Of a stretch of DNA of 64,000 nucleotides, positions 16,414-30,437 are shown piece after piece. The translations under genes were made by a program, and so were the position numbers. Location of the stretch: the NCBI GenBank assembly GCA_035650715.1, contig DASRHC010000004.1, positions 85,160 to 149,159 of the forward strand. The letters are read 5' to 3'. The DNA is from Candidatus Methylomirabilota bacterium. GTDB taxonomy: Bacteria > Methylomirabilota > Methylomirabilia > Rokubacteriales > CSP1-6. How positions within the stretch are numbered: position 1 is the stretch's first letter; every line of letters begins with the position of its first letter. The notes below the pieces were generated by a model. That model ran no database searches. It was not told the origin of the DNA and saw nothing but the letters and a program-made list of their open reading frames with translations.

Positions 16414-16968
16414 CTAGATCTTGAAGCGCGCGCGGATCTCGTCGGGCCGCTCCGAGTAGGGCGGGATCGCCTCCCGGGGATCGAACGCGATTTCCACCAC
16501 GATCGCGGCGGGACTTCCCGCCCGGCGGGCGGCGGCGAGGGCCTCGCGCAGCGCGGCCGGATCGCCCACGGTGGCGACGTGGCGCAGGCCCGCAGCCCGC
16601 GCCAGCCCGGGCCAGTCCACCGCCACCGGCGGCAGCGCCTGCCCGCCGGAGGACTCGTAGCGCCCGTTCACCCAGAGCAGCACCGTGAGGTTCGGCGGGG
16701 CCGCCGCGGCCACGGTGGCGAGCACGTTGGGGCTCATCAACAGGGAGCCGTCGCCCTCCAGGGCCACCACGTGGCGGTCCGGCCGCTGGAGCGCCACGCC
16801 CAGCGCCAGGGGAATCGCCGCGCCCATCGAGTCGCAGAGCGCGAACACCGGGCACGGCACCGTCATGTGCGGCAGGTAGCGCGCGTTCGCGCCGAGGCAG
16901 GAGATCAGCACGTCGGTCGGCGTCAGCGTCGCGACCAGCGCGTCCAGCAGCGGCTTGCGTGGCGTCAC
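16414..16968 (-). CDS. Sulfopyruvate/phosphonopyruvate-decarboxylase-like TPP enzyme, beta subunit (PP-binding domain)
   Basis: GTG start overlaps the alpha-subunit stop (GTGA). Has the TPP-binding motif ALEGDGSLLMSPNVLATVA. Confidence 0.75.
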   Translation of the reverse strand: MTPRKPLLDALVATLTPTDVLISCLGANARYLPHMTVPCPVFALCDSMGAAIPLALGVALQRPDRHVVALEGDGSLLMSPNVLATVAAAAPPNLTVLLWVNGRYESSGGQALPPVAVDWPGLARAAGLRHVATVGDPAALREALAAARRAGSPAAIVVEIAFDPREAIPPYSERPDEIRARFKI

Positions 16969-17459
16969 GCGAGATCCTCCCCGCTGATCAGCAGCACGAA
17001 GGGCCCGCGCGATTCCACGCAGAACTCGACGCCCTGCTTCACCTGCCCCGCCAGATCGCCGCGCCGGTCGGCGTGGGCGTGGGGCAGCCGCCAGGCCCGC
17101 AGCGTCTCCTCGGTGACCCGCCCCTTGGGGGCGTGGTAGTAGACCGGGTCGCGATGGTCCCCGCGCAGCGACACGATGAAGAAGCACGGCAGCCGGTAGA
17201 GCTCGACCAGGCCCGCCAGCACCCCGCCGCAGTTGAGCAGGCCCGCGTTCTGGATCAGCACCGCGCCGCGCCCGCCGGCCAGGTTGGCGCCGCACGCGAC
17301 CGCGACCGCCTCCTCCTCCCGGGCCACGTCGACCGCCCGCAGCCGGGGCGAGCGCCGCACACCCTCCATCAGCCGGCCGATCCAGGTGTCCGGCACCGAG
17401 GCCACCAGCGTGACCCCGGCGGCCTCGAGCCCGGACACGATCTGCTCCACGCCCGTCAT
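16965..17459 (-). CDS. Sulfopyruvate/phosphonopyruvate-decarboxylase-like TPP enzyme, alpha subunit (Pyr domain)
   Basis: 164 aa, MTGVEQIVSGLEAAGVTLVASVPDTWIGRLMEG. Pairs with the beta subunit, ComD/ComE-like. Confidence 0.75.
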   Translation of the reverse strand: MTGVEQIVSGLEAAGVTLVASVPDTWIGRLMEGVRRSPRLRAVDVAREEEAVAVACGANLAGGRGAVLIQNAGLLNCGGVLAGLVELYRLPCFFIVSLRGDHRDPVYYHAPKGRVTEETLRAWRLPHAHADRRGDLAGQVKQGVEFCVESRGPFVLLISGEDLA

Positions 17460-18535
17460 CGTCCCGCCTCCCCCGGCGCCGGGTTGAGCCGCATGAAGGC
17501 CGTCGGCGGCAGGTGCAGGCGCAGGGCCTGGCCCGCGGCCAGTGCGGCCGGCACCGGCTCCGGCACGAACACCAGCAGCCGCTGACCGCCGCCGATCTCC
17601 ACCGTCACCTCCGTTTGCACGCCCTGGTAGACCACGCCCACCACCCGCGCGTCCACCACGTTGTCGGCCGCCTCGCCGGTCACCCGGACGCGCTCGGGAC
17701 GGATCGCCAGCTCCACCGCCTCGCCTTCGCGCAGGCCGTCGATTCCCACCACCCGCACCGTCTCGCCGCCCGGCAGCCGCACCCGGTCCACGGCGGTCGC
17801 CTGCCCGCGCAGCACGCTCGAGGCGCCGATGAACTCGGCCACGAAGCGGGTGGCGGGCCGCTCGTAGATCTCGCGGGGCGTTCCCAGCTGCTCGATGCGC
17901 CCGCCCCGCATCACCGCGATGCGGTCGGAGAGACCCAGGGCCTCGGCCTGGTCGTGGGTGACGAACACGGTGGTGATGCCGACCGAGCGCTGGATCTCGC
18001 GCAGCTCGCTGCGCATCTCCTCGCGCAGCTTCTTGTCCAGCGCGGCCAGCGGCTCGTCCAGCAGCAGCACCCGCGGCTCGTAGACCAGCGCGCGGGCCAG
18101 CGCCACCCGCTGCTGCATGCCGCCCGAGAGCTGGCTCGGCCGGTGCTCGGCGCGCGCGTCCAGGCGGACCAGGGCCAGCGCGGCCCGCACCCGCCGCTCG
18201 ATGTCCGCCCGGGGCACGCGCCGCTCCCGGAGGCCGAAGGCCACGTTCTCGAACACCGAGAGGTGCGGGAAGAGCGCGTAGGATTGGAAGACCATCCCCA
18301 GACCCCGCTGGTGGGCGGGCCGCTCGGTGACGTCCTGCCCGTCGATGCGCACGCGCCCCGCGGTCGGCGGCACGAACCCGGCGATCAGGTTGAGCGTCGT
18401 GGTCTTCCCGCAGCCGGACGGCCCCAGCAGCGAGAGCAGCTCGCCCTCGTGGACGGTCAGGTCCAGGTCCGCCACCGCGCGGACGCCCGCGTAGTCGCGG
18501 GTGCAGCCGACCAGCTCGACGACCGCGCGCGCCAT
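17456..18535 (-). CDS. ABC transporter ATP-binding protein (PotA/spermidine-putrescine type, with C-terminal TOBE domain)
   Basis: GPSGCGKTT Walker A, LSGGMQQRVALARAL, LLLDEP. Confidence 0.9.
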   Translation of the reverse strand: MARAVVELVGCTRDYAGVRAVADLDLTVHEGELLSLLGPSGCGKTTTLNLIAGFVPPTAGRVRIDGQDVTERPAHQRGLGMVFQSYALFPHLSVFENVAFGLRERRVPRADIERRVRAALALVRLDARAEHRPSQLSGGMQQRVALARALVYEPRVLLLDEPLAALDKKLREEMRSELREIQRSVGITTVFVTHDQAEALGLSDRIAVMRGGRIEQLGTPREIYERPATRFVAEFIGASSVLRGQATAVDRVRLPGGETVRVVGIDGLREGEAVELAIRPERVRVTGEAADNVVDARVVGVVYQGVQTEVTVEIGGGQRLLVFVPEPVPAALAAGQALRLHLPPTAFMRLNPAPGEAGR

Positions 18536-18562
18536 CAGCTCACCGCCCGCCGCTCGAGCCCA

Positions 18563-29568: not shown

Positions 29569-29686
29569 CGATCTCCTCTGGCCCGGTCACCCGCTCGGGG
29601 GCCGGGGCCCTTCTCCTGGTTTGGACTGCGCCGCCACGCTGCGGTGGTTTCTGGAATCGCGCACTTATCCTACATTTCATGGAACG

Positions 29687-29741
29687 TGTCAAATGAAAAC
29701 CCGATTGACAACGTCGATTCGCGCGCCAAGAATACGGCGCC
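29687..29741 (+). promoter_or_regulatory. Sigma-70-like promoter with an overlapping inverted repeat (candidate GntR autoregulatory operator)
   Basis: TTGACA, a 17-nt spacer, then AAGAAT, 8 nt before the gntR ATG (near-leaderless). The inverted repeat TGTCAA-N12-TTGACA overlaps the -35. Confidence 0.4.
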
Positions 29742-30437
29742 ATGTCCCCGTCTCGCTCCACCGCCCCGCGGGCGGCGATCGCTCCGCTTCTCCACGAGAG
29801 CCTGGGCGAGCGCGTCTACCGCACCGTGCGCGACCTCATCCTGAGCCAGGTCTTCCCGCCCGGCTCGAAGCTGAACGTGGAGCAGCTCTGCCGCGACCTC
29901 GGGGTGAGCCGGACCCCGGTGTGGGACACCATGCGCCGCCTGGAGAGCGAGGGACTGGTCAACACGGTCGCCCGGCACGGGGTGTTCGTGCTGAACTACG
30001 GCGACGCGCAAATCCGCGACCTCTTCGCGGTGCGCGGGGCCCTCGAGGCCCTCGCGGTGCGGCAGGCCGCCGCCAACCCCGACGCGCGCGCGCTCCTCGA
30101 GCCGGCGATGAAGGAGATGGAGGAGGCGGTGGCGGCGGGCGCGATCGAGCAGTACTCGCGCGCGGCCATCGACTTCCACGACCGCATGCTGATGGCGGCG
30201 CGGAACCAGGTGCTCGGCCGGCTGCTGGAGAACGTCTACGCGCAGATCCTGGTGCTGCGCCTGCGCTCGCTCTACCTGCCCGAGCGTCTCGCGTCGAGCG
30301 TGGCCGAGCACCGCGCACTGTTCGAGGCGGTGGGGGCCGGCGACGGCGAGGGCGGCGAGCGGCTGGCCCGCTCCCACGCCGATCACGTGCTGCAGGACGC
30401 GCTCGAGTTCACGCGCCGGGCCGAGCAGGAGCGGTGA
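29742..30437 (+). CDS. GntR-family transcriptional regulator (FadR/FCD subfamily)
   Basis: 231 aa with an N-terminal wHTH (RVYRTVRDLILSQVFPPGSKLNVEQLCRDLGVSRTPVWDTMRRLESEGLV) and an FCD C-terminal domain. Confidence 0.85.
   Translation: MSPSRSTAPRAAIAPLLHESLGERVYRTVRDLILSQVFPPGSKLNVEQLCRDLGVSRTPVWDTMRRLESEGLVNTVARHGVFVLNYGDAQIRDLFAVRGALEALAVRQAAANPDARALLEPAMKEMEEAVAAGAIEQYSRAAIDFHDRMLMAARNQVLGRLLENVYAQILVLRLRSLYLPERLASSVAEHRALFEAVGAGDGEGGERLARSHADHVLQDALEFTRRAEQER

Follow-up and report, generated by a model that had tools for sequence, protein, structure and literature searches.

A 64,000-nt stretch of DNA from the uncultured Candidatus Methylomirabilota bacterium (Rokubacteriales; assembly GCA_035650715.1, contig DASRHC010000004.1; hereafter the window, ~72% G+C) carries an uncharacterised modular catabolic gene cluster in which every component belongs to a known family; it is not a new kind of system. 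A Liv-type ATP-binding cassette (ABC) importer, a three-subunit molybdenum (Mo) hydroxylase of the CoxLMS type, a Pot-type ABC importer and a split decarboxylase of the thiamine pyrophosphate (TPP) class lie in one minus-strand run of 14 genes, opposite a conserved divergent operon. The gene content, packing, conservation and modularity of the locus, and a CoxL subunit without the Cu-binding Cys, are direct observations. The reading we favour, which we put forward tentatively, is that the locus serves uncultured soil Rokubacteria in import, Mo hydroxylation, CoA activation, reduction, amide or lactam opening and 2-oxoacid decarboxylation. No characterised pathway with this gene order was found among NCBIfam equivalog models or in literature searches. 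The original prediction, made from the letters alone, could not name the pathway either, and that statement still stands: equivalog cutoffs were not reached and the literature searches turned up no matching gene combination.

Genes were called by third-position GC (GC3) frame analysis, checked by Pfam and NCBIfam scans, and compared with independent calls for several NCBI metagenome assemblies and for a public contig of identical sequence (ENA ERZ27279688 k141_957438, 164.8 kb). NCBIfam scores are given throughout as bits vs the model cutoff. The GC3, Pfam/NCBIfam and public-contig calls agreed on 14 minus-strand genes at 16414-29568, with livK first and the TPP beta subunit last, as had been proposed from the letters, and all of the family labels proposed there (Liv ABC transporter, CoxLMS-type Mo hydroxylase, Pot ABC transporter, ComDE-like split TPP enzyme, FCD-type GntR regulator) were correct by Pfam.

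28396-29568, minus strand: LivK, solute-binding protein (SBP; Peripla_BP_6)
27501-28373, minus strand: LivH, permease (BPD_transp_2)
26539-27504, minus strand: LivM, permease (BPD_transp_2)
25772-26542, minus strand: LivG, of the Liv-type ABC ATPase set (ABC_tran, BCA_ABC_TP_C)
25081-25785, minus strand: LivF, of the same ATPase set
24927-25070, minus strand: intercistronic hairpin repeat between livF and coxL, two 72-nt units in tandem (Tandem Repeats Finder score 261, 98% match)
22537-24873, minus strand: CoxL (Ald_Xan_dh_C/MoCoBD_1/2)
21671-22540, minus strand: CoxM (FAD_binding_5/CO_deh_flav_C)
21183-21674, minus strand: CoxS (Fer2/Fer2_2)
20147-21172, minus strand: PotD-family SBP with signal peptide (SBP_bac_8/6/1/11)
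19339-20133, minus strand: PotB-like permease (BPD_transp_1, PF00528; PotB 133 vs 348)
18563-19339, minus strand: PotC-like permease (BPD_transp_1, PF00528; PotC 127 vs 326)
17456-18535, minus strand: PotA-type ABC ATPase with TOBE domain (PF00005 and PF08402)
16965-17459, minus strand: TPP-alpha, 164 aa, PYR-domain subunit of the split TPP enzyme (PF02776)
16414-16968, minus strand: TPP-beta, 184 aa, with GDG...N motif, PP-domain subunit of the split ComDE/Ppd-family TPP enzyme (PF02775, 67.6 bits)

The predicted tight packing was also confirmed by the measured spacings, which from LivK to TPP-beta are 22, -4, -4, -14, 207, -4, -4, 10, 13, -1, 27, -4 and -4 nt. All genes overlap or lie within 27 nt of each other except at the 207-nt livF-coxL gap, which holds the tandem hairpin repeats, and TPP-alpha has 4-nt overlaps with both PotA and TPP-beta. 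The gap is real because the CoxL start (ATG 24873) is backed by the orthologues in three other species, all of which start MGAKYFG or MGAKLFG.

We scanned one genome per species with a close TPP-beta alignment and mapped the window proteins by tblastn, which gave 41 loci (numbered with the prefix L), nearly all labelled Rokubacteria or Methylomirabilota. Named TPP-beta homologues came from Methylomirabilota/'Candidatus Rokubacteria' metagenome-assembled genomes. The loci had the following arrangements.

Type A: LivKHMGF-CoxLMS-PotDBCA-TPPab; the window and at least 13 species, down to a CoxM identity of 65%
Type B: the type A order without Pot; L007, L018, L024, also L086
Type C: full-length TPP enzyme, acyl-CoA dehydrogenase, TPPab, HydA, HydB, short-chain dehydrogenase/reductase (SDR), second Mo hydroxylase; 13 species and L009
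Type C': PotDBCA-TPPab, then HydAB and/or the second Mo hydroxylase; L033, L039, L042
Type D: a different Liv-like system with TPPab; L016, L019

The second Mo hydroxylase, found in loci of types C and C', has a large subunit with only 32% identity to the window CoxL. The conserved-neighbourhood search thus returned the full order in at least 13 other species-level genomes, which therefore is not a chance juxtaposition, but it did not return the single fixed unit of 14 genes that had been suggested: Pot is absent from L007, L018, L024 and L086, the TPP pair also occurs in other contexts, and in L145 a PxpB-like gene comes after LivKHMGF-CoxLMS (CoxL 80% identical), Pot and TPPab both being absent. 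In a neighbour-joining tree of concatenated TPP alpha and beta, type C formed its own clade while types A, B, C' and D were intermixed in the other, and the Pot-less B loci were both basal to and nested among A loci. The Pot-TPP junction has a 4-nt overlap between PotA and TPP-alpha in both the window and L063, and the Pot-TPP adjacency recurs in loci with the second Mo hydroxylase and in L082, a sister lineage with 62% identity.

A plus-strand operon headed by the GntR gene spans 29742-36797, divergent from livK. The GntR regulator of the FadR/FCD type had been predicted at this position and was found there; the cluster boundary had been drawn wrongly at the livK side, and a conserved divergent operon reaching to 36797 was left out.

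29569-29741: divergent promoter region with TGTCAA-N12-TTGACA, its core conserved in another species (L018)
29742-30437, plus strand: GntR/FCD regulator, first gene of the plus-strand operon (PF00392, 55.9 bits; PF07729, 87.6 bits)
30434-31107, plus strand: SDR pseudogene, two SDR half-ORFs with an internal deletion and frameshift
31115-32128, plus strand: 2-oxoglutarate (2OG)/Fe(II) oxygenase (DIOX_N and 2OG-FeII_Oxy)
32133-33191, plus strand: CysK-like pyridoxal phosphate (PLP) enzyme (cysKM 329 vs 344; at most 70 bits on dehydratases)
33188-34150, plus strand: CoA-transferase A (Pfam calls on the identical contig)
34147-34908, plus strand: CoA-transferase B (Pfam calls on the identical contig)
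34965-35026, plus strand: hairpin element, third copy, separating CoA-transferase B from the LLM gene; ~60 nt aligns with the livF-coxL units
35077-36012, plus strand: F420-type LLM oxidoreductase (TIGR03619 202 vs 167, passed)
36009-36797, plus strand: PxpA/LamB_YcsF (NF003814 333 vs 226, passed)

Comparison of the livK side in other lineages started from LivK homologues, which are 85-95% identical across many contigs. L144 and L145 have homologues of CoA-transferase A/B, LLM, the CysK-like enzyme and PxpA (71-87% identity) immediately next to livK and divergent from it, and L007 has the CysK-like gene (91% identity) and a CoA_trans gene there before the locus ends, so that the set occurs in all four lineages showing that side (L007 partly). 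Its order varies: in the window the CysK-like gene leads the set, and in L144 and L145 it closes it. In L007, L144 and L145, livK and the divergent genes have no GntR, SDR or 2OG oxygenase gene between them. The SDR and 2OG oxygenase genes are lineage-specific additions, and a GntR gene beside livK was found only in the window and L018; because it is missing in three of the five informative lineages, GntR counts as a lineage-specific regulator of a divergent gene pair that already existed. The core that stays constant is thus the CoAtAB/LLM/PxpA/CysK-like set opposite LivKHMGF-CoxLMS, with Pot and TPPab as accessory 3' modules, a division that follows from L145, which keeps LivKHMGF-CoxLMS without either.

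This modularity also bears on whether the genes share a pathway at all. Independent operons or regulons (Liv, Mo hydroxylase, Pot and TPP) could have been juxtaposed by vertical synteny in gene-dense genomes rich in Liv and CoxL paralogues, and we consider this unlikely. Modules have been gained and lost independently, the related loci are all from one phylum, 1,889 coxL homologues were counted in 466 soil genomes (PMC6784897), and the 207-nt hairpin-repeat gap could end a transcript. Yet the hairpin lacks a T-tract, the livF-coxL gap is just 9-16 nt in other species, and overlaps cross module borders (4 nt between PotA and TPP-alpha in the window; CoxS with TPP-alpha in L007). The TPP pair also lies near a Mo hydroxylase in two unrelated contexts, and the block is kept where flanks differ: the type A block is intact in a 5.49-Mb genome despite an unrelated downstream flank, and for this reason exceeds local synteny. 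The genes downstream of the cluster in the window, among them ECH, CaiB-type CoA-transferase and aldolase, were rejected as part of the pathway: their strands are mixed, NUDIX, bPH_2 and hexapeptide genes are interspersed, and L063 has unrelated genes in their place.

The CoxLMS genes encode a complete three-subunit set of the xanthine dehydrogenase (XDH) family, with domain E-values from 2e-9 (Fer2 on CoxS) down to 1e-83. The catalytic Glu context of CoxL, GIGEGG, aligns with structures, and its active-site loop APYRGAGR aligns to AYRGVGF of Qor, AYRAPGR of Kdh, and AYRCSFR (1N5W/1FFU) and AYACSFR (8UEM) of carbon monoxide dehydrogenase (CODH), placing Gly where the Mo-Cu enzyme has its Cu-ligand Cys. 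No coxD/E/F/G-type maturation genes were found among gene calls and Pfam labels over ~7.6-40 kb of the window. The best NCBIfam match of CoxL was CODH_aero_grp5 (NF040766; 777 vs 950), with TIGR02416 at 566 vs 991, both below cutoff. Models for archaeal glyceraldehyde dehydrogenase (NF041018, NF041019, NF041020) scored 638 vs 790, 230.5 vs 350 and 220 vs 290, and no CoxLMS subunit reached any NCBIfam equivalog cutoff. CODH identity was rejected on the loop, these scores and the accessory genes: because the Cu-binding Cys is replaced and cox accessory genes are absent from the calls, CoxLMS is, as judged from sequence, not a Mo-Cu CODH, even though it belongs to the same three-subunit family as 1N5W and 8UEM and its best PDB match is the Mycobacterium smegmatis CoxL (535 bits). 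Next nearest were quinoline 2-oxidoreductase (514), ketone dehydrogenase (450) and the Oligotropha carboxidovorans CoxL (447). The window enzyme shares the L/M/S set, the Pfam domains, a YRG.G loop without Cys and the GIGEGG Glu with QorLMS (1T3Q), 6-hydroxypseudooxynicotine (ketone) dehydrogenase (7DQX) and 'form II' CoxL-like proteins. It differs from QorLMS in scoring lower on QorL than on the Mycobacterium CoxL, and from these relatives in its L-M-S order behind an ABC importer, with no quinoline or nicotine pathway genes. The nearest CoxL homologues on replicons of cultured bacteria were at most 44% identical; two of these, from Variovorax (42-43% identity), lie directly behind Liv-type ABC operons.

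Both TPP subunits match only two named families, the sulfopyruvate and phosphonopyruvate decarboxylases. The original description as ComDE-like held at the level of family resemblance, with split PYR and PP subunits and the TPP motif, but not at the level of sulfopyruvate decarboxylase, since TPP-alpha scored 101 vs 148 on Sulfopyru_alph (TIGR03845) and TPP-beta 104 vs 221.5 on Sulfopy_beta (TIGR03846). TPP-beta also scored 109 vs 240 on PRK06163, and the two subunits 62 and 99 vs 312.5 on phosphonopyruvate decarboxylase TIGR03297. ComDE of Methanocaldococcus and RhiEF of Bacillus subtilis (9IZ3) are similar in having PYR and PP subunits of ~165 and ~185 aa, overlapping genes and the GDG...N motif; the window pair differs in reaching only ~36-50 bits on solved structures (TPP-beta 50 bits to RhiF, 9iz3_B; TPP-alpha 36-50 bits to 9iz3_A and to 9u8r_A, an unnamed alpha/beta TPP enzyme), in falling below both equivalog cutoffs, and in lacking neighbours from coenzyme M, sulfonate or phosphonate pathways. 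ComDE and RhiEF, the family members that have been characterised, form aldehydes by decarboxylating 2-oxoacids (PMC12141560). Thirteen of 1.84 billion representative proteins matched TPP-beta at E<=1e-30. Beyond one relative with 62% identity, found in L082 in the order SDR-Cox2(M,S,L)-PotBCA-TPPab (Cox2 being the second type of Mo hydroxylase), full-length relatives are at most 45% identical, and the window pair is accordingly a distinct clade.

If the pair were a genuine sulfopyruvate or phosphonopyruvate decarboxylase, the locus would degrade a C3 sulfonate or phosphonate (cysteate, sulfolactate, phosphonoalanine) or 2-aminoethylphosphonate, with Pot/Phn-like import and a PhnR-like GntR. 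Besides the family match of both TPP subunits, PotA scores almost alike on PhnT2 (372 bits) and PotA (377), the best match of GntR is phnR_burk, and the CysK-like enzyme of the divergent operon belongs to a family that includes cysteate synthase. We nevertheless consider this route very improbable. The scores lie far below cutoff, phnR_burk at 110 vs 271 and phnS2 at 41 vs 393 as well as the decarboxylase models, and the TPP-beta clade is at most 45% identical to anything outside its own group, with ~50 bits to RhiF. Xsc, PhnX, PhnW, PhnA and phosphoenolpyruvate (PEP) mutase were not found in the cluster or annotated flanks. The individual candidates for such a pathway were rejected one by one: a nearby HAD protein has no PhnX match, a PEP-mutase-family gene 8 kb off is PrpB-like, scoring 306 bits there against 154 on PEP mutase, and lies directly beside leuC, and an HpcH gene is HpaI-aldolase-like.

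Distant split TPP pairs (30-43% identical) occur in two kinds of context, both of which fit, by analogy, a decarboxylase converting a 2-oxoacid to an aldehyde. In the first, the neighbours are NAD aldehyde dehydrogenases (ALDH), accompanied by genes for PrpD, acyl-CoA dehydrogenase or CaiB. It was seen at the metagenome locus L087 and on plasmids of Deinococcus, Sphingobium, Mesorhizobium, Burkholderia and Halalkalicoccus; a Methylobacterium plasmid locus with the split pair had no ALDH. These clusters resemble the window in the split pair within catabolic operons, a neighbour capable of oxidising aldehydes and, often, CoA-transferase genes nearby; they differ in the ~30% identity, in a partner that is an NAD-ALDH rather than a Mo enzyme, and in PrpD, acyl-CoA dehydrogenase and MaoC genes that are absent from the window locus. 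In the second, the pair lies next to dehydratases of the enolase superfamily, to TctC binding proteins and to an FAD amine oxidoreductase. A subfamily with 38-43% identity was seen in metagenome loci L080, L094, L119 and L122: in L080 a divergent MR_MLE enolase-superfamily dehydratase and a TctC-type binding protein accompany the pair, with an FAD amine oxidoreductase downstream; L094 has the MR_MLE gene too, and L119 and L122 have ORFs of matching size at the same positions. Such loci look like another uncharacterised pathway, for acid sugars or polycarboxylates.

To gauge the association of the TPP pair with Mo hydroxylases we used 64 loci with TPP-beta at least 60% identical, 22 of which have at least 8.5 kb on both sides. 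An XDH-family large subunit lies within 10 kb in 18 of these 22 well-flanked loci, 11 with the window type (Cox1) and seven with Cox2. Pot genes are directly upstream of the TPP pair in 10/22, and caprolactamase-like HydAB occurs in 8/22. The association is suggestive and not proven, because these genomes are rich in coxL paralogues; Diamond et al. (2019) termed the 1,889 soil coxL homologues overlooked small-molecule dehydrogenases (PMC6784897). No NAD-ALDH was found near the TPP pair in any of the 64 clade loci, nor anywhere in the 64-kb window.

The latter result bears on a direct coupling of the two enzymes, in which TPPab would make an aldehyde and CoxLMS would oxidise it to the acid, a two-step NAD-independent oxidative decarboxylation. 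On this reading the Mo enzyme replaces the ALDH of the distant relatives, which would account for the complementarity between ALDH (adjacent or in the same operon in six of seven annotated distant contexts, namely 5/6 plasmid loci and L087, against 0/64 in the clade) and an XDH-family enzyme of two interchangeable subfamilies (18/22). The CoxS stop overlaps the TPP-alpha start in L007, and archaeal glyceraldehyde dehydrogenase is the best NCBIfam match for CoxS and CoxM and the second best for CoxL. Those scores are all below cutoff, however, with CoxL higher on the CODH and Qor structures; L145 has an orthologous Liv-CoxLMS (CoxL 80%) without the TPP pair; no Mo enzyme lies in range of the TPP pairs of L016, L019, L040 and L044; and an opposite-strand gene divides CoxS from TPP-alpha in L024. 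We regard direct coupling as possible but rather unlikely.

Both importers are complete. The Liv set has a Peripla_BP_6 SBP, two BPD_transp_2 permeases and two ATPases, one with BCA_ABC_TP_C, and the Pot set has an SBP, two BPD_transp_1 permeases and a TOBE ATPase. They are like LivJKHMGF (HAAT) and PotABCD in their full component sets, canonical order and signal peptides on the SBPs, and unlike them in SBPs that are far from ligand-defined orthologues and in sharing one operon with redox and TPP enzymes. PotA passes the TIGR01187 potA subfamily model (363 vs 355.6) without reaching the PotA and PhnT2 equivalogs. The PotD-like SBP scored 60 vs 582 on PotD and 30 vs 636 on PotF, short of orthology to a polyamine binder; its nearest PDB entry is 4edp (unnamed ligand; 113 bits), with PotD structures at 55-65 bits. 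LivK is nearest to amino-acid-binding SBPs, at no more than 111 bits. Predicting ligands for both SBPs from their PDB relatives was uninformative.

The lactamase-type subunit PxpA passes its NCBIfam subfamily cutoff, a likeness to the 5-oxoprolinase PxpABC, but the window has PxpA alone: no PxpB or PxpC homologue was found in the window and the PxpABC set is incomplete, while L145 has PxpB after CoxS. Caprolactamase CapAB of Pseudomonas jessenii opens a lactam in an ATP-dependent reaction (PMC6061476). The sister TPP-clade contexts carry CapA/CapB-like HydAB next to Cox2, at 508 and 294 bits, far under the cutoff of 1000, and the window locus has no aminotransferase or ALDH steps of a caprolactam pathway. 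With PxpA(+PxpB) beside Cox1 and HydAB beside Cox2, a Mo hydroxylase and a lactamase-type enzyme accompany the TPP pair in both of its contexts.

It is this shared combination, together with the CoA-transferase and F420-type reductase that partner CoxLMS, that leads us to favour the tentative modular pathway over the alternatives. The chemistry at each step, the class of substrate and the regulation are all our inference. The cell would import an amino-acid-like or N-containing organic acid, and/or take up an amine through the Pot system, and CoxLMS would hydroxylate or oxidise it. A CoA thioester would be formed, the LLM enzyme would carry out a reduction, PxpA would open an amide or lactam bond, and TPP alpha/beta would decarboxylate the resulting 2-oxoacid non-oxidatively to an aldehyde. 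Classical N-heterocycle catabolism proceeds by hydroxylation next to the N to give a lactam, CoA activation, ring reduction and hydrolytic ring opening, and the CoxLMS locus resembles it by analogy.

Several points weigh against this scheme. No core protein reaches an NCBIfam equivalog cutoff that would name a substrate, and LivK's nearest PDB relatives are ordinary amino-acid binders that give no pointer to a heterocycle. With PxpB/C missing from the window, it is uncertain whether PxpA acts as a lactamase. The CysK-like enzyme does not readily fit the scheme, and neither the 64 clade loci nor the window offer an aldehyde dehydrogenase to clear the predicted aldehyde. Conservation is in part plain vertical synteny, all related loci being from one phylum, and the repeat-bearing 207-nt gap could separate transcripts. 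The 2OG oxygenase with a PLP dehydratase was rejected as a source of the 2-oxoacid because the PLP enzyme is CysK-like and the 2OG oxygenase is lineage-specific.

A more specific version of the favoured pathway would be an undescribed Rokubacteria route for an N-heterocyclic amino acid or plant-exudate compound, such as a heterocyclic beta-substituted alanine, run by the Liv-CoxLMS-divergent set with Pot/TPPab optional; we find this doubtful. The CysK-like enzyme would release the heterocycle and the Mo enzyme would hydroxylate it; CoA activation, reduction and ring opening would follow, and the ComDE-family enzyme, acting on a new substrate class, would decarboxylate a 2-oxoacid product.

For regulation, the region between livK and gntR holds a sigma-70-like site (TTGACA-17-AAGAAT, 29705-29733) facing gntR. 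TGTCAA-N12-TTGACA is the sole inverted repeat read there; one arm is the -35 box of the gntR-facing promoter and the other a -35-like hexamer facing livK, so the repeat may most simply be two back-to-back divergent -35 boxes. The operator proposed there from the letters is putative. In the window's lineage the GntR/FCD protein, a putative repressor, probably controls both divergent promoters. Behind gntR, the N-terminal half of the SDR pseudogene ends soon after ...NCVKAV, and the coding sequence picks up again at ...YVASKGAV in a different frame, as the C-terminal half; ~30 residues are lost, the catalytic Ser included, and the split is identical in all population contigs (L057-L059).

The ~60-nt hairpin element (transcript sense ...GTCCGCCGGCTGGGGGAGTGCGGGGGCCATTTCTGGGCCCCCGCAGCTGAAGAG) has three copies, all intercistronic and in the same orientation relative to transcription. 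Each 72-nt unit in the livF-coxL gap holds the hairpin GCGGGGGCC-N7-GGCCCCCGC, and the third copy gave a pattern match at 34992-35016 with one mismatch, where the chance expectation is 0. No T-tract follows the element, an Rfam search of 16000-37700 gave only chance miRNA-level matches and none on it, and it is absent from the loci of other species, those with the 9-16 nt gap. Within one population the copy number of the 72-nt unit is polymorphic: compared with the two-copy window (24874-25080, 207 nt), L002 (2452-2586) and L058 (698-832) have a single copy and a 135-nt gap. The element may be a stabiliser or processing element of mRNA, similar to repetitive extragenic palindromic (REP) sequences and common to both operons.

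Other genes and loci were noted alongside. A 154-aa protein without Pfam or NCBIfam match (15913-16377, plus strand) is convergent with TPP-beta, their stop codons 36 nt apart, and loci of types A and B keep it next to the TPP pair with 52-64% identity; the L024 homologue is relocated between CoxS and TPP-alpha. A full-length TPP enzyme resembling acetolactate synthase (ALS-like; 550 aa, 38656-40308, minus strand) adjoins a glycosyltransferase and an FAD/NAD-binding reductase, and shares only 27% identity with the full-length TPP enzyme of type C loci. The type C cluster is itself a second conserved and likewise uncharacterised Rokubacteria cluster (L009, L023 at 6635-19738, and others), with an ALS-like TPP enzyme (PRK08266, 556 vs 571), a PucD/HcrA-like Mo hydroxylase complete with S and M subunits, and a cytochrome c gene after the SDR that was called in L009 and has tblastn matches in several others. 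L146 (contig_55379, 10001-21173) was excluded as evidence: its livK region is fragmented or pseudogenised, with split ABC and CoxL pieces and an AhpC/redoxin insertion, which may be an assembly artefact or real decay, and HydAB and a TauD dioxygenase lie upstream of livK.

Soil metagenomes are full of coxL-like genes that do not encode CODH, and the window locus gives one clade of them a recurrent and testable genomic context. This CoxL clade of an abundant uncultured phylum is tied to two screenable importers, a CoA-transferase, an F420-type oxidoreductase, a lactamase-type subunit and a split TPP decarboxylase, and with this defined and recurrent set of partners an 'unknown CoxL' becomes a testable pathway hypothesis. 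For the ComDE/Ppd family, the locus adds a separate, well-populated clade without sulfonate or phosphonate pathway genes nearby. If the doubtful heterocyclic-alanine route were true, one clade of the 'non-type-I coxL' genes that abound in soil would gain its first defined function.

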